64,000 nucleotides of DNA from Deferribacterales bacterium (GTDB lineage: Bacteria > Chrysiogenota > Deferribacteres > Deferribacterales > Geovibrionaceae). The first letter of the stretch is position 1. Every line of letters starts with the position of its first letter. The notes beneath the pieces are model-generated. The model did not search any database. It saw only the letters and a program-made list of their open reading frames with translations, and was not told the origin of the DNA. Shown piece after piece: positions 8,399 to 24,466 of the stretch. The translations under genes and the position numbers were made by a program. Where the stretch lies: contig JBFWLW010000013.1 of NCBI GenBank assembly GCA_050251945.1, positions 1-64,000 on the forward strand. Direction: 5' to 3'.

Positions 8399-8417
8399 GG
8401 CACACCTTTTCACATTC

Positions 8418-10049
8418 TTAATATGCGTAGCTTACACTGATGTCGAACACGGTCTTGTCATATTTGTACTCTGGCACGTTTGAATCGGCATCGGTATATG
8501 TGACACCTCCGCTCAAAAACACCGAATTCGTCAGTTTATATATGGATTTGATCCCGACATTGTATATCTTGTCCTCGCGGATGGTCGCAAGCCCGGAGCT
8601 GTCCATTTTGTCTATGGCGGAGTTGTAGTAATCTGCATATGTATAATCGGCGCTGAATGAAAGAGTGACTTTAGGAGTCAGGGCGGTGAGAGTTCCGAAC
8701 GAAACGGAATATGCCCTGTTGTCCTTGTCTGCGCCGTCGGTATTTTCAAGGTTAACGCCTGCACCGAATGTCACGTTGTACTTCTGTGCGAACATCTTTG
8801 ATATTTCACCTGAAATTCCGTAGTACATTCCGTCTTTGTCCGCTCTGGGATCCGGAGAGGATACATAGCTTCTCTTTTCTACCTTAACGGGAACGCTAAG
8901 TGTGAAACCGTCGAATCTGATATTTGAACCAAGCTCCGCACCGTATGTTTCATAGTATTTCTCGTTTCCGAGTGAAAGGATACCCGCCGTTAATTTTGGG
9001 GTGTATGAAACCCTGTCTGTGCTTTTTGTAACCTGAACGTAGGCTTTATGCATTTCAAGATCATATGAACTCAAGCCTTTTTTCATGTTAAACGACCTGT
9101 AGTTCATAAGTCCGATAGCCGCCTTGTCAGACCAGAGCGGGTACATGTTATATTTAGCATCAAGAACGAAAGCGGTCCTGAAGCTTGAGGTGCCGGAAGC
9201 GCCGATGTCCTCGTTCTCAGATTTTACGTTGTCGTCGTATTCTTCGATAGCGGAGAAATAGATGCTGAACGGTTTTTTGAACTGGTTCATCTTTTCCCGC
9301 TTAAGCTGCATGTATTCAGCATCAAATGATTTGACGTTCGCCAGAGATTCCTCAGCGCACTCAAACCTGCCCGTGATCATGCATATATCCGAAATAAGCA
9401 TCTGAGCCTGTTCGTATTGATCCTGTTTTCCTGCGGATACTTTTCTGAGAGAGCCGACGGCATTGTAAAAATCGCCCTGCCTGTAGGCTATCTTTCCTTT
9501 TCTTATATAGTACCTGTCATCTTTGGCTGTAACTTTTTCAAGCTCTTCACCGGCTTTTTCGTAGTCGTTCATAGCGGTGTATATATCAACCAGAGTATAT
9601 CTCATGGTATCGTCGCCTGTTTTGTCGGCATAGGTTGAGATATCGGTAAGAGCGCCTTCCATATCACCGATGTTGAAGAAGGCAAGTCCCCTGTATTTAA
9701 GCAGATTCGGGTCGCTGTTGCCTTTTTCAATCTGCGTGTTGCACACATAGACTATCTCGTCGTATTCCTGATTCTCAAGCATGAGAGTCAGTGCGACGAA
9801 ACCGTCCTGCTGCTGGTTATTCTCAAAAAAACAGATAGATCTGTAGATATTGCTGGAAATGCCTTCGGAAGCGGAAAGAGCTTTAAGCTCGCTCTCCATG
9901 TTCCTGCATTTTCCTGATTTGATGGCATCGAAAACTTTCTGATAAACGCCGCTGTATTCGCCGATGACGGGATAGTCATAGGCATACAGGGCAACAGGGC
10001 TTAACAACGGCAGTATAAGAAGCCCTGCCGAAAACATAAAACGACGCAT
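8418..10049 (-). CDS. TPR + C-terminal outer-membrane beta-barrel protein (Slam/DUF560-like architecture)
   Basis: Signal peptide and TPR helices (RGLAFFNIGDMEGAL, KGKIAYRQGDFYNAV). The barrel starts near EYDDNV and ends with DSNVPEYKYDKTVFDISVSYAY, which has an aromatic BAM-type terminal residue. Confidence 0.75.
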   Translation of the reverse strand: MRRFMFSAGLLILPLLSPVALYAYDYPVIGEYSGVYQKVFDAIKSGKCRNMESELKALSASEGISSNIYRSICFFENNQQQDGFVALTLMLENQEYDEIVYVCNTQIEKGNSDPNLLKYRGLAFFNIGDMEGALTDISTYADKTGDDTMRYTLVDIYTAMNDYEKAGEELEKVTAKDDRYYIRKGKIAYRQGDFYNAVGSLRKVSAGKQDQYEQAQMLISDICMITGRFECAEESLANVKSFDAEYMQLKREKMNQFKKPFSIYFSAIEEYDDNVKSENEDIGASGTSSFRTAFVLDAKYNMYPLWSDKAAIGLMNYRSFNMKKGLSSYDLEMHKAYVQVTKSTDRVSYTPKLTAGILSLGNEKYYETYGAELGSNIRFDGFTLSVPVKVEKRSYVSSPDPRADKDGMYYGISGEISKMFAQKYNVTFGAGVNLENTDGADKDNRAYSVSFGTLTALTPKVTLSFSADYTYADYYNSAIDKMDSSGLATIREDKIYNVGIKSIYKLTNSVFLSGGVTYTDADSNVPEYKYDKTVFDISVSYAY

Positions 10050-10122
10050 AACGTCTCCTCCTAAATGAAACCTCTCTTCACGCTATACAAGATACTAACA
10101 TACTATACCCTAATTTTCATGA

Positions 10123-11076
10123 TTATTGGCGTTGTTGAGCGTATTTCAATAATTTCTCTCTGTTTAAAATTAATATTCCCGCAACAACCATTATTATGCT
10201 TACTAAATGCGGCGCTCTGAGGTAACCAACCATAAGATCATCCGCACGGAAAAACGTCACAAACGCCCGAATAAAGCCGTAAAAGATGAGATACCACGCA
10301 ACAAGACGCCCCGTTCCGAGATTCTCGTCCTTTCGCCATAATAAATATAGGATAATGAAACATGCGAAATTAAGCACCATTTCATAGATAAACGTCGGGT
10401 GCACCGGAAGCGCTCCGAAGTCGCTGTAGGCGGGAGTTCGCTTATAATTCCCGAAGCTCATGCCCCATGGCACGTATTCTTTCAGTTCATAGAGTTTTCC
10501 CTCAAAACTCACCTGAACGGGTAGTTTGTCCATCAGCTTTGAAATGCTGGCAGGCATGGGATTCAGACCTGTCTGGTCGCATACTGCCGACCAGAAATCA
10601 CGAAATCTGTTTTCCACCCCGAATATTATTGAGGGAGGGACTATGGTCGGCACTCCGTGCGCCTCACCGTTTGCAAGGTTGCCTATCCTGCCTATCGCCT
10701 GTCCGAAGAGAAGCCACGGAACCATCGTATCCGCAAGCCCGAGAAGACTGGTCTTTTTATACTTTGTGAAGATATAGAGCGCAATAAGCGCGCCTATGAT
10801 ACCGCCGTGGATGGCAAGCCCGCCGTGCCACACGGCAAACATTTCAAATACGTTTCCGGCGTAATATTCCCAGCGGAATGCGACATAGTACATTCTCGCG
10901 CCGACAATACCTGCAAGAAAACAGGCGATTGCAGCGTTCTCCATGTCCGTCGGTTTCAGATTAAGCTTTTCTGCCTTTCGCTTTATCATGTACATCCCGA
11001 CGATAAGCCCGATAATGTACATAAGGCTGTATACCCTCAGTTCCAGAGGTCCCAGTTTAAAAAGATACGGAAACAT
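10123..11076 (-). CDS. lgt: Prolipoprotein diacylglyceryl transferase
   Basis: Motifs GARMYYV, WHGGLAIHGG, GRIGNLANGE, PWGM and HPTFIYE. Confidence 0.95.
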   Translation of the reverse strand: MFPYLFKLGPLELRVYSLMYIIGLIVGMYMIKRKAEKLNLKPTDMENAAIACFLAGIVGARMYYVAFRWEYYAGNVFEMFAVWHGGLAIHGGIIGALIALYIFTKYKKTSLLGLADTMVPWLLFGQAIGRIGNLANGEAHGVPTIVPPSIIFGVENRFRDFWSAVCDQTGLNPMPASISKLMDKLPVQVSFEGKLYELKEYVPWGMSFGNYKRTPAYSDFGALPVHPTFIYEMVLNFACFIILYLLWRKDENLGTGRLVAWYLIFYGFIRAFVTFFRADDLMVGYLRAPHLVSIIMVVAGILILNREKLLKYAQQRQ

Positions 11077-11186
11077 AATTTTCCCCCCTTGTCTCTGTCA
11101 GAAACATAATAAACAGTACAGACTTTTTTTACAAATCAAAAAAACCTTGATTTTTTGTATCGCCCTTGCTATAAAGAACACCCATT

Positions 11187-11259
11187 TTGCACGCCCGTAT
11201 AGCGTTTAAAACTGCCGTGTGCCTGAAATCCTTTCGGGTGGCTGTTTTACGGGGCGCAA
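11187..11259 (+). promoter_or_regulatory. rpsB 5' leader (putative S2 autoregulatory RNA structure)
   Basis: ttgcacgcccgta can pair with tacggggcgcaa, enclosing an inner gccgtgtgcc...gggtggc region. A TTGATT/TGnTATAAA promoter lies just upstream, and the element sits directly 5' of rpsB. Confidence 0.6.
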
Positions 11260-11300
11260 GAATAACAAATTGAGAGGCGAAAACGCCTCGGGAGAAATTA

Positions 11301-12086
11301 ATGTCCTATATTTCAATGAAAAGCCTGCTTGAGGCGGGCGTTCACTTCGGTCACCAGACAAAACGCTGGAACCCGAAAATGTCCAAATATGTCTTCGGCG
11401 CAAGAAACGGTATCTACATACTCGACCTTCAGAAGACAGTTCAGTGCTTCAACACCGCTTACGAATTCGCAAGAGATGCAGCTCGTCAGGGCAGCAGCTT
11501 CCTTTTCGTAGGTACTAAGAAACAGGCTCAGGAAGCTATCAAGCAAGCTGCTGAAAAATGCAATGCTCATTACATGAACGAACGCTGGCTCGGCGGTACC
11601 CTTACAAACTTTCAAACCATCCGTACAAGAGTGGCAAGACTGAAAGAACTTGAAGAGATGTTTGAAACAGGCTTCGTTAATAAATATACCAAAAAAGAAG
11701 TTTCAAAACTCAGAAAAGAGCTTGATAAACTCACTAAAAACCTCGGCGGTATCAAAGATATGCAGGGTATCCCCGATGTTATGTTCATAATCGACATCAA
11801 AATGGAGCAGAACGCAGTTGCCGAAGCTCACAAACTTGATATCCCGATAATCGCAATCGTCGATACAAACTGCGACCCCGATCAGGTTGATATGCCCATC
11901 CCCGGTAACGACGACGCTATCCGCGCTTGCCAGCTTATCGCAGGACGCATAGCAGACGCCATCATCGAAGGCAGACAAATACTTGACGAAGAAAACATCG
12001 GTCAGGCAGAAGAAGAAGGCGGCGAGGACATCCCCGTTGAACAGCTTCTCGCTGACGTACCCGTTGATAAAGCAGAAGAGGAGTAA
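11301..12086 (+). CDS. rpsB: 30S ribosomal protein S2
   Basis: Motifs [28 protein letters not shown] and PGNDDAIR. Confidence 0.99.
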
Positions 12087-12089
12087 TAA

Positions 12090-12962
12090 ATGGCAGAGAT
12101 CACAGCCGCACTGGTTAAAGAACTTCGCGAAAAAACCGGAGCAGGAATGCTCGACTGCAAAAAAGCCCTTGCCGAATCCGACGGCGACCTTGAAGGCGCT
12201 GTTGAATACCTCCGCAAAAAGGGTCTCGCAGCTGCCGCAAAAAAAGCCGACAGAATCGCAGCGGAAGGTACCGTTGCTGCCATCGTTAAAGACGGCATAG
12301 GCGTTATCGTTGAAGTAAACTCCGAAACAGACTTCGTTGCTAAAAACGAAAACTTCACTGCATATGCGACAGAAATGGCGGAGCTTGTTGCTGAGGTCGG
12401 TCCCGCAGATATCGAGGCTTTTATGACTGTTACAGCTAAAAACGGCGAAACCGTTGAAGCCTACCTTAACAGCATGATCGCAAAAATAGGCGAAAAACTG
12501 AGCATCAGACGTTTCGCACGTCTTGAAGGCGGCACAGTTGCCACATACATCCACGGCGGCGGTAAAATAGGCGTCGTTGTGAAACTTGAAGGCGGCACAC
12601 CCGAGCTTGCAAAAGACCTTTGCCTGCACATAGCCGCAAGCAACCCCAAATATCTCGATTCCAGCTTTGTTGACGCTGATTTCGTTAACAAAGAGAAAGA
12701 GATATACGCTGCCAAACTGAAAGAGCAAGGCAAACCCGACAACATGATCCCCAAAATAGTTGAAGGTCAGGTTGCAAAACTTCTTAAAGAAGTATGCCTC
12801 GTAAGCCAGCCTTTCGTTAAAAACCCCGATGTCACCATCGAAAAACTTCTTGCCGACGCAGGAGCCAAAATAGTTTCCTATAACCGTTTTGAGCTTGGAG
12901 AAGGCATCGAAAAAAAGCAGGAAAACTTTGTGGAAGAGGTAATGAAACAGATCAAGAACTAA
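12090..12962 (+). CDS. tsf: Elongation factor Ts
   Basis: Motifs VKELREKTGAGMLDCKKAL, EVNSETDFVAKN and RFELGEGIEK. Confidence 0.99.
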   Translation: MAEITAALVKELREKTGAGMLDCKKALAESDGDLEGAVEYLRKKGLAAAAKKADRIAAEGTVAAIVKDGIGVIVEVNSETDFVAKNENFTAYATEMAELVAEVGPADIEAFMTVTAKNGETVEAYLNSMIAKIGEKLSIRRFARLEGGTVATYIHGGGKIGVVVKLEGGTPELAKDLCLHIAASNPKYLDSSFVDADFVNKEKEIYAAKLKEQGKPDNMIPKIVEGQVAKLLKEVCLVSQPFVKNPDVTIEKLLADAGAKIVSYNRFELGEGIEKKQENFVEEVMKQIKN

Positions 12963-13010
12963 GGGTCTGCTGCATGACCGCCGCATTGGGCGTTCTGTCG
13001 AAATTAAAGA

Positions 13011-13047
13011 AATAAAGCCGGGGTTTTTCTCCGGCTTTTTTTTTATT
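13011..13047 (+). terminator. Intrinsic terminator after tsf
   Basis: Hairpin aaagccggg...tccggcttt followed by a long T tract. Confidence 0.85.
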
Positions 13048-13130
13048 CCATCCTTACAAAATTGTAAGCTCTTGATTAATTCCTCCTCGGTCGTCATTAT
13101 AAAATACTGAGAGGTACAGGAGGAAACACC

Positions 13131-13640
13131 ATGCAGACATTTCAGCAAATTAAACCCGAAGACTTTAACCAGAGTCCCTTCAGAATAATAGGCAAGGACT
13201 GGATGCTCGTTACGGCGGAAAAAGACGGCAGAGCGAACAGCATGACGGCTTCATGGGGCGGACTCGGTGTTATGTGGGGCAAAAACGTCGCATTTATCGT
13301 GGTTCGCAAAAGCAGATTCACCAAAGAATTCGTTGACGGCGCCGACACCTTTTCGCTCACTTTCTTCGACAGGAAACAATACGGCAAGATGCTGGGCTAC
13401 ATGGGTACGGTATCCGGACGGGACGAGGATAAGATAGCGAAATCCGCCCTGACCGTTGCACACCGGAACGGCACCCCCTACTTTGAAGAAGCGGAGAAAG
13501 TCATTATATGCAGGAAACTCTTCTGTCTGCCGCTCACACCCGAACATTTTATAGACAGCTCAATAGACAATGAATGGTACAAGGACAAAGATTACCACGA
13601 CCTTTATATAGCAGAGGTCACAGATATTCTCATTCGCTGA
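13131..13640 (+). CDS. Flavin reductase-like family protein
   Basis: Motifs [25 protein letters not shown] and [10 protein letters not shown]. Confidence 0.85.
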
Positions 13641-13753
13641 AAAGAAAAAAATTTGACTTTTCCGCCGCAGGGGATATTATATTCCTGCCTACCCCAAATT
13701 TAAGACCCACTGGCAAGGGTCTTACAATCTTTTCCAACAATCGGAGTATAGTC

Positions 13754-14530
13754 ATGTTCAAAAACGAACTGGTCATCGCCGGACGTACGTTCCGCAGCAG
13801 ACTCATGGTAGGCACAGGCAAATTTCCCAACGCAAAAATTATGGCAGACGCACTTGACGCAAGCGGCGCAGAGATAGTCACCGTTGCGCTTCGCCGCGTG
13901 GACATAAACAATCCTCAGGACGATATCCTGAAACAGATAGACCCGAAAAAATATCTCCTGCTCCCAAACACATCCGGAGCAAGAGACGCGGAAGAGGCAG
14001 TGCGACTCGCCCGCATAGCAAGGGCTGCGGGTTGCGAACCGTGGATCAAACTGGAAGTCACACCGGATCCGTATTATCTTCTGCCCGACCCCATCGAAAC
14101 GTTCAAAGCGGCAGAGATACTCGTTAAAGAGGGATTCAAAGTTCTCCCCTATATCAACGCAGACCCCGTTCTCTGCAAGCGTCTCGAAGAGATAGGCACT
14201 GTCACCGTCATGCCGCTCGGCGCGCCAATAGGGAGCAACAAAGGCATTAAAACAATCGACAACCTGCGAATAATCATCGAACAGGCAAAAATTCCCGTTG
14301 TGGTTGACGCGGGGATAGGCGCACCGTCACATGCGGCGCTCGCTATTGAAATGGGCGCGGACAGCGTTCTTGTGAACACCGCCATAGCAACTGCTAAAGA
14401 TCCGGTTATGATGGCAAGATCATTCAAACTCGGCGTTGAGGCGGCAGTTACGGCACGCGCGGCAGGTATGCCCGGAACAAGAGACAGAGCGGAGGCATCA
14501 AGCCCCCTTACAGGATTTCTGAGGAACTGA
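13754..14530 (+). CDS. thiG: Thiazole synthase
   Basis: Motifs [41 protein letters not shown] and NTAIA. The start was moved to ATG 13754, which follows a GGAG ribosome-binding site. Confidence 0.97.
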
Positions 14531-14532
14531 TA

Positions 14533-15648
14533 ATGAGCTTTGAACAGGAACTTGATAAATACGATTTTAACGATACAAAGGATTTCATCTTCTCCCGCAA
14601 GGCGGCTGACGTTGAGTTTGCCCTCGGCAAAGAAAACATAGACGAAGAAGATTTCGCGGCACTGCTCTCACCTGCCGCAACGCCATACATTGAAGAGATG
14701 GCACAGAAGGCAAACCGCATAACTGTGCAGAGATTCGGAAAGACAATAAAAGTTTACGCGCCTATTTACCTTTCAAACGTCTGCTCGAACTCCTGCAAAT
14801 ACTGCGGGTTTAACCGCCACAATGAAATTCCCCGCGTCACACTCACTGACGAACAGATAAAACAGGAAACGGACATCATCCACAACATGGGTATCCGCCA
14901 TATCCTTCTTGTCACAGGAGAATCACCTGTCAAAGTCGGCACGGACTACCTTATAAACGCGGTTAACCTCATGAAGGACAAGTTCAGTTCGGTCTGCATA
15001 GAGGTATATCCCATGTCCGTTGATGACTACACCCTTATGTACAGTCACGGGGTTGACGGACTGACCATGTTTCAGGAAACATATAACCGCGTGAAATATG
15101 CCGACGTACACCCCGCAGGCAGGAAGCGCGACTTCGGCTGGAGGCTCGGCGGCCCCGAACGCGGCGCACAGGCAGGCTTCCGCACCATAGGTCTCGGTAC
15201 GCTCATGGGGCTTGAGGAATTCAGAACCGATCAGTTCTTCCTTGGTCTCCACGCAGGCTATCTTATGAAAAACTTCTGGAAGACCCATGTCTCCATCTCA
15301 TTCCCGCGCATACGCAAAGCGTCGGGAAACTTTCAGGCATATCAGATAATTGAAGATATCGACTACGTTCAGATGCTCCTTGCCCACAGGCTGTTCAGAC
15401 ACGATCTGGGCATCAACGTCTCCACCCGCGAATCCGCAGAGTTCCGCGACAGACTGCTCAGGCTTGGTGTCACCCACATGAGTGCAGGCTCCAAAACAGA
15501 ACCCGGCGGATATGCAAAGGAACATAACGGCAAACAGTTTCAGGTTGAAGACACAAGGACAGTCGATGAATTTTGTGATATGGTAAGAATGAACGGTTAT
15601 GACCCCGTTCTGAAAGACTGGGACACATATTTCCTTAACGGAGAATAA
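14533..15648 (+). CDS. thiH: 2-iminoacetate synthase (radical SAM tyrosine lyase)
   Basis: YAPIYLSNVCSNSCKYCGF (CxxxCxxC), FQETY, STRE and SAGSKTEPGGY. It follows thiG. Confidence 0.96.
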   Translation: MSFEQELDKYDFNDTKDFIFSRKAADVEFALGKENIDEEDFAALLSPAATPYIEEMAQKANRITVQRFGKTIKVYAPIYLSNVCSNSCKYCGFNRHNEIPRVTLTDEQIKQETDIIHNMGIRHILLVTGESPVKVGTDYLINAVNLMKDKFSSVCIEVYPMSVDDYTLMYSHGVDGLTMFQETYNRVKYADVHPAGRKRDFGWRLGGPERGAQAGFRTIGLGTLMGLEEFRTDQFFLGLHAGYLMKNFWKTHVSISFPRIRKASGNFQAYQIIEDIDYVQMLLAHRLFRHDLGINVSTRESAEFRDRLLRLGVTHMSAGSKTEPGGYAKEHNGKQFQVEDTRTVDEFCDMVRMNGYDPVLKDWDTYFLNGE

Positions 15649-15649
15649 G

Positions 15650-16123
15650 ATGAAGCACTGGGACAGTGTGCGATGCTCTGCGGGTTACGACCTGTTCATC
15701 ACCTTTGACAACGAAAAGGTCTATGAGGTTGCGTCATCACGTCCCGAAAATCTTATTCAAATGCCTCTTGCGGAAAGGTTCACCTATATGGCAGAATACC
15801 TGAAAGACTGTTCGAGACAGCCCATGCTTATAGAAGCGCTGGACGATCTTGATTTTTCGTGGACGACACCCTTTTCAATGGCTGTTTACCGTACACTGGC
15901 ACTGGTTCCGTTCGGAGTAACCGTTTCATACGGCGATCTGGCGGCTCTTTCCGGTCATTCGGGTGCATTCCGCGCTGTCGGCACGGCAATGTCGAAGAAC
16001 AGATTCCTTATCATTGTACCCTGCCACCGTGTTCTGGCGGCGGGAAGAAAGATCGGGGGATTCTCCAGCGGTCTCGGCATGAAACGGGCGCTGCTGAAAG
16101 CTGAGGGGCATAATGAGTTTTGA
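15650..16123 (+). CDS. ogt: Methylated-DNA--protein-cysteine methyltransferase
   Basis: Motifs VPFGVTVSYG, RAVGTA, active-site PCHRV and KRALLKAE. Confidence 0.92.
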   Translation: MKHWDSVRCSAGYDLFITFDNEKVYEVASSRPENLIQMPLAERFTYMAEYLKDCSRQPMLIEALDDLDFSWTTPFSMAVYRTLALVPFGVTVSYGDLAALSGHSGAFRAVGTAMSKNRFLIIVPCHRVLAAGRKIGGFSSGLGMKRALLKAEGHNEF

Positions 16124-17159
16124 GTCGCTTCCATATACACTTAGATGGCAGGAGGACATTCTCTATGTCATCGACCAGACACTCCTTCCTGAAATATTCA
16201 TAGAAGTACCGCTTCGCAATATCGACGAAGTCTACGTCGCAATAAAGACTTTACAGGTGCGCGGTGCGCCGGCAATAGGCGTTGCTGGGGCATACGGTCT
16301 CTGCATATGCGCACAGAAACACCTTGACGAAGAACCCAACCTTTTCATGGAAAATCTAGGGAAAGACGCAAAATATCTTAACTCTTCCCGTCCAACAGCA
16401 GTGAACCTCAGTTGGGCGATAAAACGCATAATGAAAAGACTTTATGCCTGCGTACAGAAATCCACCGCAGATATGTATGCGGAGATACTGGACGAGGCGA
16501 CCAGAATACATAAGGAAGACCTGAGAACCTGCCGCATGATCGGCGAACACGGCAGAGAACTCATTCAGGACGGTTTCGGCATATTAACCCACTGCAATGC
16601 AGGTTCCCTCGCCACTTCCCGTCTGGGAACGGCAACCGCGCCCATGTATCTGGCTCAGGAACAGAAAAAACGGTTCAAGGTCTATGCAGACGAAACCAGA
16701 CCACTTTGTCAGGGTTCAAGGCTCACCGCATGGGAACTTCAAAGAGCGGGACTCGACGTTACGCTCATATGCGACGACATGGCGGCCTCTGTCATGGCTT
16801 CCGGCAGGATACAGCTTGTGATTGTGGGTGCGGACAGAGTTGCCGCAAACGGAGACACAGCGAACAAGATAGGAACGCTGGGCGTAGCCATCATGGCTAA
16901 ACATTTCGGAATTCCTTTTTATGTTGCCTGCCCGACGTCCACACTGGACATGAAAACTTCCTGCGGATACGACATTGAGATAGAACAGCGCGGAAACGAC
17001 GAAGTTTGCTTCTTCGGAGAAAAACGCACCGCTCCTGTTGACATAAACGTTCTCAATCCGGCTTTCGACGTTACTCCGGCATACCTCATTTCGGGGTTCA
17101 TAACGGAAAAAGGCATCGTGAAAAGACCGTACGAGAACAATCTTAAAGCAATATTCTGA
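16113..17159 (+). CDS. mtnA: S-methyl-5-thioribose-1-phosphate isomerase
   Basis: Motifs DQTLLP, VRGAPAIG, RPTAVNL, THCNAGSLAT, ETRP, GADRVAANGDTANKIGT and NPAFDVTP. Confidence 0.97.
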   Translation: MSFESLPYTLRWQEDILYVIDQTLLPEIFIEVPLRNIDEVYVAIKTLQVRGAPAIGVAGAYGLCICAQKHLDEEPNLFMENLGKDAKYLNSSRPTAVNLSWAIKRIMKRLYACVQKSTADMYAEILDEATRIHKEDLRTCRMIGEHGRELIQDGFGILTHCNAGSLATSRLGTATAPMYLAQEQKKRFKVYADETRPLCQGSRLTAWELQRAGLDVTLICDDMAASVMASGRIQLVIVGADRVAANGDTANKIGTLGVAIMAKHFGIPFYVACPTSTLDMKTSCGYDIEIEQRGNDEVCFFGEKRTAPVDINVLNPAFDVTPAYLISGFITEKGIVKRPYENNLKAIF

Positions 17160-18607
17160 TGTATGCCGGAAAGATACTCTCAGTCTCGCTGACAGACCTT
17201 TCCCACAGCATTGTAACACCTGAAAAGCGTATCTATGACAAATACATAGGCGGTCGTGGGCTGTGCGGATATCTTCTTGGCGAACATCTCAGCGAAAATC
17301 CTCTTATATTTTGCACTGGGCCGCTCACGGGTACAGGATATCAGACCACTGCCAGATGTGCTGTGATGCATATAGACCCGCGAACGGGAGGTCTGTTCCA
17401 CTCAGATTTCGGCGGCGGATTTGCGACGGCACTTAAAAGAGCGGGATACGACGGACTTATCATTACAGGAAGGGCGGAAAGCCCCGTGAGCCTCATTATT
17501 GACGAAAACGTACGGTTCGGGAGCATACCTTTCGGCTATGCGAAGACCGAAGCGGGCGCCGATAAAAATATAAGATACTGCGGCATCCTTTCCGACGGGT
17601 TCTTCACAACGCACAGAGGCGGCACGGGAACGCTGATGCACGACATGAACCTTTTGTCAGTGGGCATTATGCCTGCAAACGAACCGGAAATTCCATCGAC
17701 ATCTGCATATGAAGACATAGAAAGGCTTATAAACGCCGCACCGTCGCTCACCGGAAGACTGGGGATCGGCAGATTCGGCACAGCCGCACTCTATGACCTT
17801 TCCCATGCCCGCGATATCCTCCCCAACGTCTTTTTTAAACTGCCGAAACCCGATGCACACGATAACGCAAACGCCTTCGGTAAAACGGAAAGCGTTTCCT
17901 GCGGTTCATGCCCTATCGCCTGCCGCAAAAAAAAGGACGGACTGCGCGTACCGGAATATGACGAATTCACCATGCTTTTAAGTGTGGGGATACCCTTTGA
18001 CAGAATCACCGATATTTACAATCACTGCCTGAAACAGGGCATAGACATAATCACCGTCTGTCACTGCATAGCGCAATCCGGCATAGACGGAGAGAAATTT
18101 CTATACGACATCCCTCAGAAGTTTTACAAAGGCTCCGACAGCCTGACAATAAAAGGCATTGAACTGCCCGCCTTCGCACCCGATGGCGCAATGGGCGTGG
18201 CGCTTGGATACGCGACCTCTACAAACGGCGCGGACTGGACAACCGCCATGGCAGTCACCCACGAAATACTCAGAAAACCCGTCCCCACAGACAGACACTC
18301 TGCGGAGGGCAAAGCCGTGATAAATATAGCATATGAAAACGCAAAAGCAGCGGCGGATTCACTCCCCGTCTGTCAGTACGTCCTCTTTTCCGCATCGCTG
18401 GAGGAATACGCAAAGGCACTGGAAACCACTGCGGCTCAACTTGCCGACTGCGGAAACGGGATATTTATGAATGAGATAGATATAATCCGCCGTCTTGGTT
18501 TCGGCATAGAAACGGACAGGCTGCCGGAAGGAGTTCTGACACCTCAACAGCAGAAAGAGCTTGATGCCGAACTAAAAAAATATCACCGCATGCGGGGGCT
18601 TGCATGA
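17159..18607 (+). CDS. Aldehyde:ferredoxin oxidoreductase-family protein, shortened and divergent
   Basis: Motifs YIGGRGL, GGGFATALKRAGYDGLIITG, CGSCPIAC, PEYDE, KGIELPA, GYATS and DSLPVC. Confidence 0.85.
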   Translation: MYAGKILSVSLTDLSHSIVTPEKRIYDKYIGGRGLCGYLLGEHLSENPLIFCTGPLTGTGYQTTARCAVMHIDPRTGGLFHSDFGGGFATALKRAGYDGLIITGRAESPVSLIIDENVRFGSIPFGYAKTEAGADKNIRYCGILSDGFFTTHRGGTGTLMHDMNLLSVGIMPANEPEIPSTSAYEDIERLINAAPSLTGRLGIGRFGTAALYDLSHARDILPNVFFKLPKPDAHDNANAFGKTESVSCGSCPIACRKKKDGLRVPEYDEFTMLLSVGIPFDRITDIYNHCLKQGIDIITVCHCIAQSGIDGEKFLYDIPQKFYKGSDSLTIKGIELPAFAPDGAMGVALGYATSTNGADWTTAMAVTHEILRKPVPTDRHSAEGKAVINIAYENAKAAADSLPVCQYVLFSASLEEYAKALETTAAQLADCGNGIFMNEIDIIRRLGFGIETDRLPEGVLTPQQQKELDAELKKYHRMRGLA

Positions 18608-19734
18608 GCCTTTTCGATAAATACCTGAATAAACTTAAACTTCAGAAGCTCGCAGACAAAGCTCTCTATATCGTCACCGAGGACAACGTGACGGTCTATG
18701 GCGACAGTGCCGATAAAGAGCTTTCGGAAATAGCCTCACATATCAGGAGCTACGCGCTTCTTTTTGTCCGCCCTTCAGAACCGTTCATGTCCGCCCTTGA
18801 GCTGGCGGCGAAGAACGGTGAGTTCGCACCAAACGATTCGGAAACAAGAACCTTTCTGCACACCGTGCCTGTCGCCGACTGCTTTTCGGATGTGCCGGAC
18901 GCGCTCAAACGCCGCAAGGCGGTCTTCGTCCGCGGTCACGGAATAGTGACAGCCGCCCCTTTCGGCGCGGAACAGGCGTTTATTTTTGCCAGCTCAGTTA
19001 TATTCAGCGGGTTCGTGAAATTCTTTGCGGACGCGGGAGAAGCGGCACTCCTTGGAAAACCTTACGACCAAAAACTGACGCTCGGACTTCTGAACAGCTA
19101 CATAAAGAAGTTTGCCGTAAACGATACGCCTCCCCTCGATAAAATTATCTTTCAATCTGAACAATCCATATTATCAGCTATGGCACAGGCGGGCAGAACA
19201 ACAGTCGCTTTGGGGCTTGTTGATTCTTTTTTCGGCAACATATCAGTATTTGACGGCAGAAAAATATATATAAGCAGAACAGGCAGCAGTCTTGACGAGC
19301 TTGAAAATGAAACCGATATCTGCCCTCTGGACGAATCCGCCTGTACGGGACTTACCGCTTCAAGCGAGCTGGCATCCCACAGAAGGATCTATGAGACCAC
19401 GGATAAAAGGGTGATTCTCCACGCGCACCCGCGTTTCTCCGTTATAATGTCAATGATGTGCGCGGAAAAATGCGAAAACAGAGGAAAATGTCATTATGCC
19501 TGTACAAAAAAAAGGTATATAGGGAAAGTTCCGATAGTTGCGGGAGAGGTGGGCAACGGTCCCAGAGCAATGGTGAACACTCTGCCGCCGGCGATGAAAA
19601 TAAGTGACAGTGTAACAGTATACGGACACGGCGTTTTCACCGTGTCCGCTGATGATTTTAACGAAGCGCTGCGGCTGCTGACAGAAACAGAGACCGCGGC
19701 TTTAAAGGAATATCAGAAAATCATAATACAATAG
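18604..19734 (+). CDS. Class II aldolase/adducin family protein with duplicated domain
   Basis: The C-domain has GNIS, SSELASH, HAH and GHG metal ligands. The N-domain is a degenerate copy (NDSETRTFLH...RGHGIV). Confidence 0.88.
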   Translation: MSLFDKYLNKLKLQKLADKALYIVTEDNVTVYGDSADKELSEIASHIRSYALLFVRPSEPFMSALELAAKNGEFAPNDSETRTFLHTVPVADCFSDVPDALKRRKAVFVRGHGIVTAAPFGAEQAFIFASSVIFSGFVKFFADAGEAALLGKPYDQKLTLGLLNSYIKKFAVNDTPPLDKIIFQSEQSILSAMAQAGRTTVALGLVDSFFGNISVFDGRKIYISRTGSSLDELENETDICPLDESACTGLTASSELASHRRIYETTDKRVILHAHPRFSVIMSMMCAEKCENRGKCHYACTKKRYIGKVPIVAGEVGNGPRAMVNTLPPAMKISDSVTVYGHGVFTVSADDFNEALRLLTETETAALKEYQKIIIQ

Positions 19735-19801
19735 ATCGCTTCGTCGTGAACACTCCTCGCGAAGACATGTCTTCTGCGAAGGGTTAATTCTGAAGCAGTC
19801 T
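19733..19801. repeat. Inverted pair of REP-like palindromic elements
   Basis: agatcgcttcgtcgtgaacactcctcgcgaagaca is followed by an inverted degenerate copy ending gaagcagtct. It matches the reverse complement of 28299-28334. Confidence 0.7.
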
Positions 19802-19821
19802 ATTATAACTTATTCGTCATA

Positions 19822-20967
19822 TCAGAGCATTTTGCTGGCAAGCCATACGTCCACAAGATCGCCCCTCTGAACCTCTTCCGCATCTTCCGAGATGGCGGCG
19901 ACACAGGGGAATCCCACGCCGTTCTGGCAAGCGACAGCCATACCTTCGTCATTGATGGTGAGCCATGTTCTGACCAGTTTCGCAAAACCTTTCCTTTTTT
20001 TGACGGGAAAGTTTATCACCCCTTTGATGCTTCCTGTTTTAAGCCCGTGCCATTTGCGTATCGCCTGAACGAGAAACACTTCCGAACATGCTATGGCGCC
20101 CGCAGGGGAACCGGGGAACATGAACAGCGGTTTTCCGCCCAGAAGTCCGAAACGGAACGTTTTACCGGGGCTGACACGAAGTCCTTCAACGGGAATCTCG
20201 CCGCCGGCCTCAAGAACCGTGAGTTTCAGCAGGTCATATCTGGAATAGCCCGTTCCGCCGAATGTAACTATCATATCGCACTCAAGAGCCGCCTGTTTCA
20301 TAACGTTTGAAAGCAGACCCTCGTCGTCGGGTATTACCCCGTAATATTTCATATCCACATCGAAAATGCGCAGCAGTCCCGCCATGTGGTAATAGTTGCT
20401 GTTAACGGTACCTTTTCTGGTGAAATCCTCCACCAGTTCGGAACCTGTGGAGATAACGCCTATCAGGGGTGCTTTGGCACAGGGCAAAGTGGCAAAGCGC
20501 ATACTGGCAAATACCTCCATGAGCCGTATGTCCACCCGCATACCTTTGCGCGCTAATACATCCCCTTTTTTTATGTCGCTTCCAGCCTGAGTGATGTGTC
20601 TTTTACGCTCCTCACCCTGCTGGTATGTAACATTCTCTCCGTTTCTGTGGGCGTTTTCAAACGGAACTACAAAATCCGTGTTCGTGGGAACTTTCGCTCC
20701 GGTGGCAACGCGGATACACTCGCCTTTTTTCAGCGGTTTGTCATAGCTGTCTGCAGCGGAAAGCTCCTGTACGACAATACAGACGCCCTCGCTTCCTTTG
20801 CCCACGGCATAACCGTCCATACGGGACATGTCAACTTCCGGATAATCGTGCCGGGCAACGACATCCTCTGCCAGAACCCTTCCCGCAGAAGCGATGAGGG
20901 GAACCTCCTCCGGCTTTGCGCCGGGTATAAAAGATATGATGGTGTTAAATGCTTCTTCAAGTTTCAT
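19822..20967 (-). CDS. moeA: Molybdopterin molybdo/tungsto-transferase
   Basis: Motifs GRVLAEDV, SRMDGYAV, RVATGA, STGSEL, VNSN, TFGGTG, PGK and FPGSP. Confidence 0.9.
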   Translation of the reverse strand: MKLEEAFNTIISFIPGAKPEEVPLIASAGRVLAEDVVARHDYPEVDMSRMDGYAVGKGSEGVCIVVQELSAADSYDKPLKKGECIRVATGAKVPTNTDFVVPFENAHRNGENVTYQQGEERKRHITQAGSDIKKGDVLARKGMRVDIRLMEVFASMRFATLPCAKAPLIGVISTGSELVEDFTRKGTVNSNYYHMAGLLRIFDVDMKYYGVIPDDEGLLSNVMKQAALECDMIVTFGGTGYSRYDLLKLTVLEAGGEIPVEGLRVSPGKTFRFGLLGGKPLFMFPGSPAGAIACSEVFLVQAIRKWHGLKTGSIKGVINFPVKKRKGFAKLVRTWLTINDEGMAVACQNGVGFPCVAAISEDAEEVQRGDLVDVWLASKML

Positions 20968-21053
20968 GCTATAATCATAATACATTTTACGTGATTATAA
21001 AAGAGTGTTAGGAATAATCCTGTATTTTTTTCCGATGTGCATATAAATTACAA

Positions 21054-23042
21054 ATGAGCATGAAAAAGATTTTAATATATAATTCAAAAATTAACTTTTG
21101 TGATATTTCCGATCCTTTCTGCCGCATGATTGCCGAATATGAGCAGGTATACGGAAAAGACAGCCTGTTGAAAAGACTGGCGGAGGATAAGCCAGACGCT
21201 ATTGTTTTCGACAGTGAGGGGACAGACGACGCCTGCCTTTTTGAAATGGCAAAAATACTCAAAACGCCTGACGCGCCGAATACAGCGGTTTTTCTCACAT
21301 CCGACAGCAACCTGTCCCGTTTTGCAGATATAGGCATCAATACTTTTTTCACAAAGCAAACGGTAACAGAGGGCATAAAACAGCTTCAGCAGGGCAGAGA
21401 TACCAAATATGCCTCGCTCATACACAAAGCGGTGAACAGACTGCGCGACCTTGCCAACTGTGTCGAACACGGCATAATGGTGATGAATGCCAACGGGCGC
21501 GTAACTTTTATGAACGAGGCGGCAAAAAATATTCTGGATATGACTGGTTCAGAGATGAACCTTATGACACTGAACGAAATATTCACAGTACACCCTTACA
21601 TCGGCGACACAACCCGATTTGAAGAACAGCCCCACACCACCTGCAAAGGCAGGGAACTGCTCCTTTCCGGCACCCTGACAATAATACATGAAAACGGCGG
21701 GCAAAGCGGGAGCATACTGATATTCTATCCGGTCTCCGGACGCGCCATAGACAGACAGAAAGAACTTGAACTTCTGCAATATCAGGAGAGATACCACTCC
21801 ACCCAGCAGGCGGCGGCTTTCAAAAAGCAGATGCTCGTGATAAAGGATGAGATATCCGGCACCAAGGGCAGCCGGTTCTTTTTCGAGACCTATTTCAAAC
21901 CGCTGGACGTCATGAGCGGCGATATCTACGGAAACATGAACATAAAAGACGGCAGATACTTCCTTTACATCATAGACGCAATGGGCAAAGGACTGTCAGC
22001 TTCCGTTACGGCATTGCAGTCAAGCTCATTCATAAACCACTCGGTTGAACTTTCCATAATAAAAAACGACTTTGACATGAGCAGGATGCTCTCGTCATTC
22101 CTGCACTATATCCGCGACAGGCTGATGGAGGACGAGGCGTTATGCGCCGTTTTTGCCATGATAGACACAAACACGGACACTATATCCGTATCCAGCTTCG
22201 GCATGCCGCCCATCCTCGCAAAGATGAAAGACGGCACAGTGCAGAAACTCCGCACACCCAACATGCCCATCATGCGCTTTATGGCGGTTAAGGAGATAAC
22301 AGAATTCAGCCTGAAAGATATTGATAAAATACTGATATATTCCGACGGACTTTCGGAATCCACCACAAGCGACGGCTCGCTCTATTACGACAAACTGCCC
22401 GACTGTTTCAGCAAGGCGGCGACAAAAAAACACCTGCTCAGGATGGTAAACAAGGACATAACCCTGAACGAAGACGACATAACATTCTTCTTCATAAGCA
22501 CCGAACAAACGGAAACAGCAGCAGAGGACTCCTTCACGATAAACTCCGGCGCGGCGCAGCTCAGCGCAGCGGGGGAACGCATAAGTGCCTTTATGGAAGC
22601 ACAGGGGGTTGACAGCGTTGAAGTTTCAACCTTTGAGTTCGCGGTGGGCGAAATGCTGATGAACGCTCTGGAACACGGAAGCCTCGGGCTTTCATTCCGC
22701 CAGAAACAGGACATGATACGCGGCGGCGTGTATGACGACTTCATCACTGAACACACAAAAGAGAGTACATCCGATTACAGCAAAGAGATAAAGATACGCT
22801 GCCGTGCCGCGCTGACAGGTACCGGCGGACAAAAACTTCTGACCGTTGAGATAACCGACAGCGGAAACGGGTTCAACGTATCCGAAATATTCAAATTCAG
22901 CAGTTTTGACGGCAATTTATTTAAAATTGACACCAGAAAATACAACGGCAGAGGCATCTTCATCACCGACAACCTCGTGGACGGACTGTATTACAGCGAC
23001 AGAGGCAACACCGTTCACATTGTCAAAGTGCTTGAGGACTGA
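21054..23042 (+). CDS. PAS + PP2C (SpoIIE/RsbU) phosphatase + RsbW-like kinase fusion
   Basis: PAS (HGIMVMNANGRVTFMNEAA), PP2C motifs (SGDIY, DAMGKGLSA, YSDGLSE, DDIT) and HATPase motifs (EMLMNALEHG, DSGNGF, GRGIF). Confidence 0.9.
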   Translation: MSMKKILIYNSKINFCDISDPFCRMIAEYEQVYGKDSLLKRLAEDKPDAIVFDSEGTDDACLFEMAKILKTPDAPNTAVFLTSDSNLSRFADIGINTFFTKQTVTEGIKQLQQGRDTKYASLIHKAVNRLRDLANCVEHGIMVMNANGRVTFMNEAAKNILDMTGSEMNLMTLNEIFTVHPYIGDTTRFEEQPHTTCKGRELLLSGTLTIIHENGGQSGSILIFYPVSGRAIDRQKELELLQYQERYHSTQQAAAFKKQMLVIKDEISGTKGSRFFFETYFKPLDVMSGDIYGNMNIKDGRYFLYIIDAMGKGLSASVTALQSSSFINHSVELSIIKNDFDMSRMLSSFLHYIRDRLMEDEALCAVFAMIDTNTDTISVSSFGMPPILAKMKDGTVQKLRTPNMPIMRFMAVKEITEFSLKDIDKILIYSDGLSESTTSDGSLYYDKLPDCFSKAATKKHLLRMVNKDITLNEDDITFFFISTEQTETAAEDSFTINSGAAQLSAAGERISAFMEAQGVDSVEVSTFEFAVGEMLMNALEHGSLGLSFRQKQDMIRGGVYDDFITEHTKESTSDYSKEIKIRCRAALTGTGGQKLLTVEITDSGNGFNVSEIFKFSSFDGNLFKIDTRKYNGRGIFITDNLVDGLYYSDRGNTVHIVKVLED

Positions 23043-24466
23043 TCCTTTATAACTGGAAGCACTATCACAGCTTCCGCTCCGTCTTTCGTATTTTGCAGCT
23101 CAATATCACCGTGCATCTGATCCTTTACCACCAGCCTGGACATGAAAAGCCCTATACCGGAGCCTTTGCCCTCCTCTTTTGTGGAGAAATACGGCTCGAA
23201 CACATGTTCCCGCACTTCATCTGAAAGCCCCGTTCCGTTATCGGCAACACTTATGCGCACGCTGTCTTTTACGCACGAAACGGATATACTTATCTTCCCT
23301 TTATGTCCGGCAGAACCGGTATTCTTCTCGTTTATTGCGTCAATGCTGTTGTATATCAGGTTAAGCATCACATGGCGGAATCTGCCCTGTTCGCCGCGAA
23401 CAAACATCCATCTGTATGAGCAGTCGGGACATGCGGCTACGTTTCTGCATGCAATATGCTGCTTTCCGCATTTACATTGCAATTCAATATCTATACCGAG
23501 ATAATTGAGCTGCGCCTGTAAGATACTCATGACATCAAGAATTTCTGCTGCCACACAAAATTCAGCCGCCGCTTTTTCCGGCGCGAAGAAAAGCCTGAAA
23601 TCGTCTATTATATCGGACATTTTGTCTATCGTGGCTGTGACTACGGTATTGTAGTCGTCCATATATTTATCGTTCAGCTCACCAGCCTTATATGTATCAT
23701 TCAGGTCGATGCTGTAGAGCGAAAGGATGTTGAGCGGCTGCCGCCACTGGTGTGCAATGGCGCTTAAAAGCTTGCTCATATCCGCCATCTTCTTCTGATT
23801 TTCTATCAGATTTTCCTGCCGGTGGCGCTTTTTAAGCTCCTCCTCAACCTTTTCTTTCAGTTCGTCGTGCATCTGCCTGATACGGCTGTCCATTATGACA
23901 TACGAGGTCATATCTCTGCACATAACAAGAAATCTGTTATCACCCACACGCACTGCATGGCAGGAGAGGAAATAGTCCGCGCCGTCTTTTTTGAGAAATT
24001 TCAAAGTAATATCCAGACTGTCGGTGTTCAGCATCTTCGCCAGCGCCGCATAGCCCTGTTTAACACTTTCATCCGCCCACATCTGCTGAATGGTCATGGC
24101 AGTAAGTTCCGTCTCCGTGTAACCGGAGATATCGTACATTGACGGATTTGTTTCGACGATACGTCCTGTCCTGTCGCAAACGATTATCGGGTCGGGCGAG
24201 TTATTTATATATGTCTTATATTTCTCGTCACGTTCCCGCGCCTGCCTGTCCAGCTTGTTCAGAACACGCAGTATCACATACAAACCTGAGGTGAACATGA
24301 GAAAAAGCAAACCGACTGTCAGCTTTTCAAATATTTCTCTCGTCACATTGTCGTTCCTGAATCTGGCGTCAATATAGCTGTCGGTAAGAACATAAATCAG
24401 CACTGCAAAGACAGCCACCCCCGTAATAACCGTTCCGGACCTTTTAATTAAAAATAATCTGTTCAT
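23015..24466 (-). CDS. Membrane PAS sensor histidine kinase
   Basis: Two TM helices, a PAS domain, H-box IAHQWRQPL, N-box NLIYNSIDA, DNGTG, FEPYFSTK and GSGIGL. Confidence 0.93.
   Translation of the reverse strand: MNRLFLIKRSGTVITGVAVFAVLIYVLTDSYIDARFRNDNVTREIFEKLTVGLLFLMFTSGLYVILRVLNKLDRQARERDEKYKTYINNSPDPIIVCDRTGRIVETNPSMYDISGYTETELTAMTIQQMWADESVKQGYAALAKMLNTDSLDITLKFLKKDGADYFLSCHAVRVGDNRFLVMCRDMTSYVIMDSRIRQMHDELKEKVEEELKKRHRQENLIENQKKMADMSKLLSAIAHQWRQPLNILSLYSIDLNDTYKAGELNDKYMDDYNTVVTATIDKMSDIIDDFRLFFAPEKAAAEFCVAAEILDVMSILQAQLNYLGIDIELQCKCGKQHIACRNVAACPDCSYRWMFVRGEQGRFRHVMLNLIYNSIDAINEKNTGSAGHKGKISISVSCVKDSVRISVADNGTGLSDEVREHVFEPYFSTKEEGKGSGIGLFMSRLVVKDQMHGDIELQNTKDGAEAVIVLPVIKDQSSSTLTM

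Follow-up and report, generated by a model that had tools for sequence, protein, structure and literature searches.

In the 64,000-nucleotide stretch analyzed here (the window; positions 1 to 64,000 of contig JBFWLW010000013.1, assembly GCA_050251945.1, from a Deferribacterales bacterium of the family Geovibrionaceae), a gene for a large subunit of the aldehyde oxidoreductase family (AOR/WOR; 17159-18607, plus strand, 482 aa) runs into a gene for a class II aldolase (18604-19734, plus strand, 376 aa, Aldolase_II match). We found that the two genes form a dedicated, conserved pair, that the AOR copy in the window is short and eroded, and that the aldolase is a PRK08660-derived tandem of two class II domains; the initial annotation of this locus had recorded neither of the last two features. 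The reading that the pair ends the recycling of S-adenosylmethionine (SAM) by-products in many anaerobes, with the window AOR kept as a binding partner for the aldolase, seems to us about evenly poised between right and wrong. A more far-reaching proposal, which we regard as possible rather than probable, is that the tungsten AOR clade is an obligate aldolase partner that would channel the aldehyde to its tungsten site, recover low-potential electrons and end SAM by-product salvage, while a lineage without tungstate uptake would keep a dead AOR with its Fe-S cluster as a scaffold or activator.

When GTDB genomes were scanned with a 376-aa aldolase alignment, 569 relatives were confirmed, and the locus counts given here refer to the best 80 of these 569. 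In 78 of the 80 loci, the gene directly upstream, in the same orientation, encodes an AOR; one of the two exceptions stops at a contig edge, and in the other the genome has its AOR elsewhere. According to the database records, the carriers span Desulfobacterota, Spirochaetota, Fermentibacteria, Lentisphaerae, Hydrogenedentota, Bacteroidota and Myxococcota. Viewed from the AOR side, 68 metagenome loci have the aldolase adjacent in 51 cases and two or three genes away in 2, with no room for it in 12 and none in 3, and the reading-frame ends overlap in 109 of 129 full-length adjacent pairs (some genomes were fetched twice). In unbiased samples, 21 of 251 genomes from Desulfobacterota and 10 of 201 from Spirochaetota carry the tandem aldolase; among those 21, the AOR is adjacent in 17, elsewhere in 2 and absent from the assembly in 2. 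Five genomes together have 26 AOR matches, and in each of these genomes a single AOR has the aldolase as its neighbor. Single-domain PRK08660 aldolases are likewise linked to AORs from this wider clade, which branch outside the tandem-linked AORs in a quick, midpoint-rooted tree.

The conserved unit is this pair and not the six-gene row thiG-thiH-ogt-mtnA-AOR-aldolase, which the initial annotation had read as one pathway. mtnA, thiG, thiH and ogt stand beside the aldolase in 5 of the 80 loci, all from this genus; mtnA clusters with the aldolase in 7/7 genomes of the genus, overlapping the AOR gene in every one, and in none of the other 75 loci. For the initial annotation, a trio of mtnA, AOR and aldolase not shared by other genomes would have counted against its pathway, and the neighborhood search confined that trio to this genus. 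Elsewhere the remaining neighbors of the pair differ from locus to locus and are unrelated housekeeping genes. The proposed link between AOR and aldolase itself held up, with the upstream AOR found in several phyla and the two proteins predicted to bind. The initial annotation described a real module, drew its limits too wide and credited with activity a copy that appears, in all probability, to have lost it.

Three variants of the arrangement were seen along the way. In one genome (G217, L165:6857-10206), a tandem aldolase gene is lined up with genes for an LsrF-like class I aldolase/thiolase and for a zinc alcohol dehydrogenase, and the assembly holds no clade AOR; this is possibly a reductive version. 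Clade AORs in loci L263, L266 and L237 have no aldolase behind them, and L263 and L266 have a ribulose-phosphate 3-epimerase-sized gene upstream (annotated as such in L263). Near the module of two spirochaetes (L072:14106-16490 and L073:14358-16778) lies a second AOR-like reading frame of about 800 aa that lacks the Thr, Glu and His second-shell residues.

The window AOR has AFOR_N and AFOR_C domains and the AOR fold (TM 0.91 to 1aor), and it is the only AOR-family gene in the genome. Its Fe-S cysteines C248, C251, C255 and C405 align to C288, C291, C295 and C494 of the Pyrococcus furiosus enzyme, and T208 (Thr243 in P. furiosus), R66, R153, D296 and D400 are also kept. D268, F339, W360 and M364 replace Glu313, Tyr427, His448 and Tyr452, so that three of the four second-shell residues Thr243, Glu313, Tyr427 and His448 are lost and the set reads T, D, F, W. 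These four are tied to aldehyde oxidation and conserved in aldehyde-oxidising members, according to the available part of PMC12096430. Canonical members of the tandem-linked clade, of about 580 aa, keep all four in 79 of 85 sequences, whereas the eroded branch lacks the Glu, Tyr and His in 9/9 and the window copy has 100 residues deleted relative to the clade. The window AOR nests within the tandem-linked clade on a long branch, as read from the same quick, midpoint-rooted tree, which we used for nesting and not for identifying a donor. The eroded AOR is nevertheless under purifying selection and not decaying: its ratio of nonsynonymous to synonymous substitution rates (dN/dS) falls within 0.07-0.16 for six of seven genome pairs and reaches 0.24 for the most distant one, values like those of the aldolase. 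A pseudogene was excluded on these ratios, save in one relative with two insertions. The window AOR looks like a catalytically inactive protein kept as a scaffold for the aldolase.

The initial annotation had proposed that the AOR oxidises the aldehyde released by the dihydroxyacetone phosphate (DHAP) shunt and reduces ferredoxin. For canonical pairs elsewhere this is plausible, given the four residues kept in most of them; for the window copy, which lacks the equivalents of Glu313, Tyr427 and His448, it is unlikely. We therefore consider it improbable that the window AOR is an active molybdenum or tungsten enzyme with a remodelled site, even though its Fe-S cysteines, Thr243 equivalent, several pterin-contact residues and fold are intact, selection is purifying, its gene overlaps mtnA and the genome has moaC and two moeA genes. 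Set against these points are the changes Glu313 to Asp, Tyr427 to Phe, His448 to Trp and Tyr452 to Met together with the 100-residue deletion, at positions that the available text of PMC12096430 describes as conserved in aldehyde-oxidising members. A TupA-like tungstate-binding gene was found in 41 of 49 canonical carriers and in 0/7 genomes of this genus, in a search for TupA rather than ModA in which all matches fell below the narrow NF041772 cut-off. Furthermore, the genome encodes an ExaC-type acetaldehyde dehydrogenase (above its cut-off) that could take over the aldehyde.

The window AOR and window aldolase, each with an 88-row alignment, were modelled as a complex. The model scored 0.88 (best control, 0.00), its runs agreed in at least 86% of contacts and the partners had pLDDT values of at least 88; 116 of 157 solved complexes attained the score mark, as did 2 of 215 mismatched pairs, and these counts are only rough for alignments of our own. 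The AOR and aldolase are thus predicted to bind each other, with the AOR docked beside the aldolase active site. The modelled AOR surface comprises residues 186-217 (17714-17809, plus strand), the first clade-specific segment of the predicted docking surface by complex model and alignment, residues 368-392 (18260-18334, plus strand), in which the clade-invariant R372 contacts aldolase residues 225, 226 and 251 in the model, and residues 415-427. On the aldolase, the surface spans both domains and includes residues 225-228 and 244-260, next to S253, S254 and E255. By comparison with 31 unlinked AORs, 21 of 30 conserved interface positions are clade-specific. The eroded AOR keeps the clade-specific residues at 17 of the 21 interface positions and at 16 of 47 other positions (p=0.0005, overstated because the genomes are related to each other and many are metagenome-assembled genomes); interface and conservation count share one alignment, so the comparison is partly circular. 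PDB searches with the two proteins gave no AOR-aldolase complex among the matches.

The aldolase itself has an intact site of the FucA/DrdA type. A single-domain homologue profile matches residues 67-143 and 190-372, and the structure model (pLDDT 93.7) has a fold matching FucA structures and DrdA. In the second domain, the phosphate pocket and E255, H273, H275 and H342 are kept in 88/88 sequences, as are G211, N212, T226, S253 and S254; the first domain is degenerate, its metal site being lost, with D78, E80 and H86 kept in 88/88. An insert in the catalytic domain carries C286, C290, C296 and C300 (19459-19503, plus strand) in 74 of 88 aligned homologues and is a probable metal site. The other 14 of the 88 have a short Gly/Pro/Phe loop there instead. 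The initial annotation had allowed that the protein might be an MtnB dehydratase; this was not borne out, given the intact FucA/DrdA-type site and a TIGR03328 score of 27.8 bits against a cut-off of 137.

The fold includes decarboxylases, epimerases and oxygenases. It could be that the protein catalyses another reaction, such as decarboxylation or dehydration, or is an accessory subunit whose place behind mtnA is accidental: mtnA is adjacent in one genus only, and in the sister genus a racemase occupies that slot. We hold this to be quite unlikely in view of the invariant phosphate-binding and metal residues (88/88), the low MtnB score (28 against 137), the partner from an aldehyde-oxidising family, which fits an aldehyde-releasing reaction, and the DHAP-forming aldolases that repeatedly follow mtnA in other Deferribacterales.

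Returning to an aldehyde-releasing aldolase, the genome (99.97% complete) has one class II aldolase and one mtnA (the only PF01008 gene), both at this locus. mtnA (16113-17159, plus strand; TIGR00512 above cut-off), for a methylthioribose-1-phosphate or 5-deoxyribose-1-phosphate isomerase, is the likely source of the aldolase substrate. The initial annotation had listed mtnK, mtnP and mtnB as missing from the window. Over the whole genome, mtnK gave no match and an MtnB-type gene is still absent, the sole PF00596 match being this aldolase, but an mtnP-type phosphorylase is encoded on another contig (272 bits against the TIGR01694 cut-off of 275, and passing the methylthioinosine phosphorylase model). 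A MtaD-like deaminase below family cut-offs is also encoded elsewhere, so that the upstream steps have candidate genes and the set of the DHAP shunt (phosphorylase, MtnA and class II aldolase) is complete within one genome. A RuBisCO-like protein and fucose isomerase had no match in the genome. Because mtnP is present and no match was found to a further class II aldolase, to a RuBisCO-like protein or to fucose isomerase, the MtnA product, i.e., the substrate of the DHAP shunt, is our best guess for the aldolase.

According to this reading, 5'-deoxyadenosine or methylthioadenosine would be deaminated and phosphorolysed and the product isomerised by MtnA, steps for which genes are present. The second aldolase domain, with its intact site, would then split the sugar phosphate into DHAP and an aldehyde; in most carriers the substrate would be a pentulose-1-phosphate made by MtnP and MtnA, most likely 5-deoxy- or 5-methylthio-ribulose-1-phosphate. 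Equilibrium constants of such cleavages lie near 1e-4, and DrdA has the same Glu and metal arrangement (both from the available part of PMC6079011), so removal of the aldehyde matters. In canonical carriers the docked AOR, whose site is intact and whose binding is modelled, would oxidise the aldehyde to its acid, pass the electrons to ferredoxin and thereby pull the unfavourable cleavage forward; channelling from aldolase to AOR may be supposed by analogy with aldolase/dehydrogenase complexes, as may a dependence of the aldolase on its AOR partner. This genus would have acquired the module and placed it behind an existing thiG-thiH-ogt-mtnA block. There the aldolase stayed intact, while the AOR would have lost its second-shell residues and been retained as the partner that the aldolase needs; the oxidation step was probably lost, and the aldehyde may pass to a separate NAD-linked dehydrogenase.

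The wider gene inventories agree in part. mtnA is present in 50/50 carriers and mtnP above cut-off in 41/50, and a class II aldolase besides that of the module occurs in 3 of 40 carriers compared with 23 of 40 non-carriers. Three non-carriers have mtnA-aldolase-aldehyde dehydrogenase clusters, the same oxidative logic with NAD. Clusters at L214:4320-10277 (G020), L371:1790-6288 (G145) and L361:1384-5637 (G122) contain a phosphorylase, a divergent mtnA, an aldolase and an NAD aldehyde dehydrogenase, and resemble an oxidative, DHAP-shunt-like route for a modified nucleoside. The aldolase has an SCP2 domain in L214 and L035, and the L214 cluster sits behind a B12 radical SAM gene.

A number of observations weigh against the SAM by-product reading or against the need for the partner. 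mtnA is also found in the background samples, in 244 of the 251 genomes from Desulfobacterota and 141 of the 201 from Spirochaetota; being near-universal, it makes co-occurrence with the module weak evidence, and we dropped it as proof of function after this check. One sampled carrier (G216) has no mtnA match, and 0/30 mtnA loci of carriers adjoin the module, one of them having an Ald2-type gene of its own. Among non-carriers, 17 of 40 lack any class II aldolase, which means that the MtnA product has other fates, and the aldolases present have mixed neighbors, some in sugar clusters. Related genomes in these counts are, moreover, no independent samples. The window aldolase scores far better to PRK08660 (141 bits, the best model) than to PRK06833 (35 bits), the family of the mtnA-linked Ald2 genes that two such aldolases of relatives pass. 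With regard to the partner, 2 of 5 genomes with a lone tandem aldolase show no clade AOR in the assembly, and the AOR of the closest relative (L213:5325-6775, G002) has two 1-nt insertions, a real loss or an assembly error, while a 90% identical AOR protein elsewhere is intact; the missing and frameshifted genes suggest that the partner may be dispensable. Outside the interface, the eroded AOR also retains 63 of 88 family-wide positions, which makes an altered activity possible.

The same chemistry and upstream enzymes would also serve plain ribulose-1-phosphate, made from nucleoside ribose-1-phosphate by a promiscuous MtnA, or a related phosphorylated pentulose, with glycolaldehyde and then glycolate as products. 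In three genomes (L161:9533-10204, L337:3216-3875 and L338:3261-3914), the gene directly upstream of the clade AOR encodes a phosphoglycolate-phosphatase-like HAD protein, which points this way, as does the existence of an NCBIfam ribulose-1-phosphate aldolase family in the same fold. However, the three genomes are probably related and their HAD genes fall below family cut-offs, and the window aldolase scores 39 bits against the cut-off of 300 for the ribulose-1-phosphate model, so we rate this route as unlikely. Less promising still is a role at the end of fucose or rhamnose breakdown, with fuculose- or rhamnulose-1-phosphate cleaved and lactaldehyde oxidised to lactate. The nearest solved structures are named fuculose-1-phosphate aldolases and sugar kinases stand beside the pair in two metagenome loci, where a promiscuous use in sugar clusters is possible; but the fucose/arabinose isomerase family (PF02952) was found in just 7 of 80 carriers and is missing from this genome (the search did not extend to rhamnose isomerase), so fucose breakdown cannot be the general role. 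This genome also gave no match to FGGY kinases (tblastn, three queries) or to FucU, and the other neighbors of the pair are unrelated housekeeping genes. At the four loci nearest to an AOR with the label Aminicenantes, neither lut nor rha genes adjoin the pair.

At the locus itself, the six co-oriented genes with overlaps and the facing moeA agree in reading frames, strands and junctions with the initial annotation, and domain or family profiles upheld the family names of all seven genes. thiG (13754-14530, PF05690 match), thiH (14533-15648, TIGR02351 above cut-off) and ogt (15650-16123, TIGR00589 above cut-off), all on the plus strand, form a block (13754-16123) that is older, common to the sister genus and outside the conserved module; it is probably co-transcribed with the pair. 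In row order the junctions are a 2-nt gap (thiG/thiH), a 1-nt gap (thiH/ogt), an 11-nt overlap (ogt/mtnA), TGATG at 17157-17161 (mtnA/AOR) and ATGA at 18604-18607 (AOR/aldolase). Behind the aldolase, 87 nt separate its stop from that of the convergent moeA (19822-20985, minus strand, MoeA family), whose second in-frame ATG at 20967 was the start used before. ThiH releases 5'-deoxyadenosine. As pathway members, ThiH and Ogt were set aside, since neither stands beside the pair outside this genus, and no supporting evidence was found for the suggested role of Ogt. moeA, proposed to supply the cofactor, was rejected as a dedicated cofactor gene: it is convergent, has a second copy elsewhere in the genome and adjoins the pair in this genus only.

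No strong terminator lies within the six genes, which is compatible with co-transcription and no demonstration of it. The RNA data (two runs, small shares, contigs only) were uninformative on operon structure or level. An Rfam scan of 10000-24000 gave no riboswitch and one chance-level match, and the promoter and terminator scan was at shuffle level (10 against 7.6 and 9 against 9.8). A perfect 8-bp inverted repeat at 13701-13724, 30 nt 5' of thiG, is flanked by two promoter-like matches and has no Rfam match; it could be an operator or attenuator. Farther away in the window, 6032-8413 (minus strand) encodes a FecR-like protein of 793 aa whose very long low-complexity tail is rich in Ala and Gln, and a TPR/outer-membrane-like gene stands next to it (names by reading the sequence, not by family search).

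Comparison within the order bears on the history of the row. The closest named homologues come from Seleniivibrio. The sister genus has the arrangement thiG-thiH-ogt-mtnA-racemase-spoIIE, and the other 9 genomes of the family yielded no AOR; with the racemase in this slot, it follows that the pair was inserted behind an older block and that the six genes are not one unit. In other Deferribacterales, a FucA-like aldolase follows mtnA in six loci, one of which has the make-up of the drd cluster of Denitrovibrio acetiphilus as given in the available part of PMC6079011, and a class II fructose-bisphosphate aldolase stands behind mtnA in others (annotated in two of four loci). Across these mtnA loci (L198-L200, L201, L204-L211 and L215), the gene behind mtnA varies by lineage among a FucA-like aldolase, a class II fructose-bisphosphate aldolase and an Asp/Glu racemase, and a moonlighting DHAP shunt may lie behind the occurrence of fructose-bisphosphate aldolase there.

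A physiological role has been defined for only five of 92 WOR clades, according to the accessible portion of PMC13328260, and a conserved aldolase partner provides one widespread clade with a substrate that can be tested and with a new, predicted quaternary structure. Almost all sampled Desulfobacterota have mtnA without a known use for its product, for part of which the pair is a candidate exit. The window copy amounts to a natural experiment, a putative AOR pseudo-enzyme under selection mainly at its predicted docking face, in which structural and catalytic roles come apart, and caution is called for before this locus is annotated as an active AOR.

Among known systems, the DHAP shunt and 5-deoxyribose disposal (MtnP or MtnK, MtnA/DrdI and Ald2/DrdA; available parts of PMC6079011 and PMC10986504) come closest. 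They share with this genome the phosphorylase, the isomerase and an aldolase of class II with a Glu and three His ligands, and the proposed products, DHAP and acetaldehyde or methylthioacetaldehyde, are the same. However, the aldolase here is of a tandem PRK08660 type rather than the Ald2/DrdA type and in nearly all carriers is coupled to an AOR rather than to mtnA. The aldehyde fates given in the available sections of PMC10986504 are ethanol, methylthioethanol, or acetate through AdhE in Escherichia coli, and those of PMC6302742 describe aldehyde reduction as the sole fate. The shunt is already known; an AOR/class II aldolase pair was described nowhere in the literature searched, which left most subscription papers outside its coverage.

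Class I WOR/AOR enzymes (P. furiosus AOR, 1aor; PMC13328260, available in part) have the same fold and one [4Fe-4S] site, no polyferredoxin gene was seen in the module, and canonical members keep Thr243, Glu313, Tyr427 and His448; they differ in the predicted aldolase partner subunit and in the window copy lacking three of these residues. The word "aldolase" is absent from the main text and three supplements of that five-class WOR scheme (2026), whose gene-neighborhood table may list the pair. WOR4 of P. furiosus and YdhV/BamB are AOR-family proteins with altered second-shell residues and no aldehyde activity in the available text of PMC12096430. Their substitutions are different and no aldolase partner is reported there, and unlike them the window AOR derives from an intact aldolase-linked clade. 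In aldolase/acylating aldehyde dehydrogenase complexes (1NVM and 4JN6), an aldolase is bound to the enzyme that removes its aldehyde, and the accessible part of PMC12041015 reports the aldolase inactive without its dehydrogenase partner. The folds are unrelated on both sides and the likeness is one of working only: those complexes use NAD, CoA and 2-oxo-acids, whereas the pair described here would rely on a tungsten-pterin site and ferredoxin and act on a sugar phosphate.

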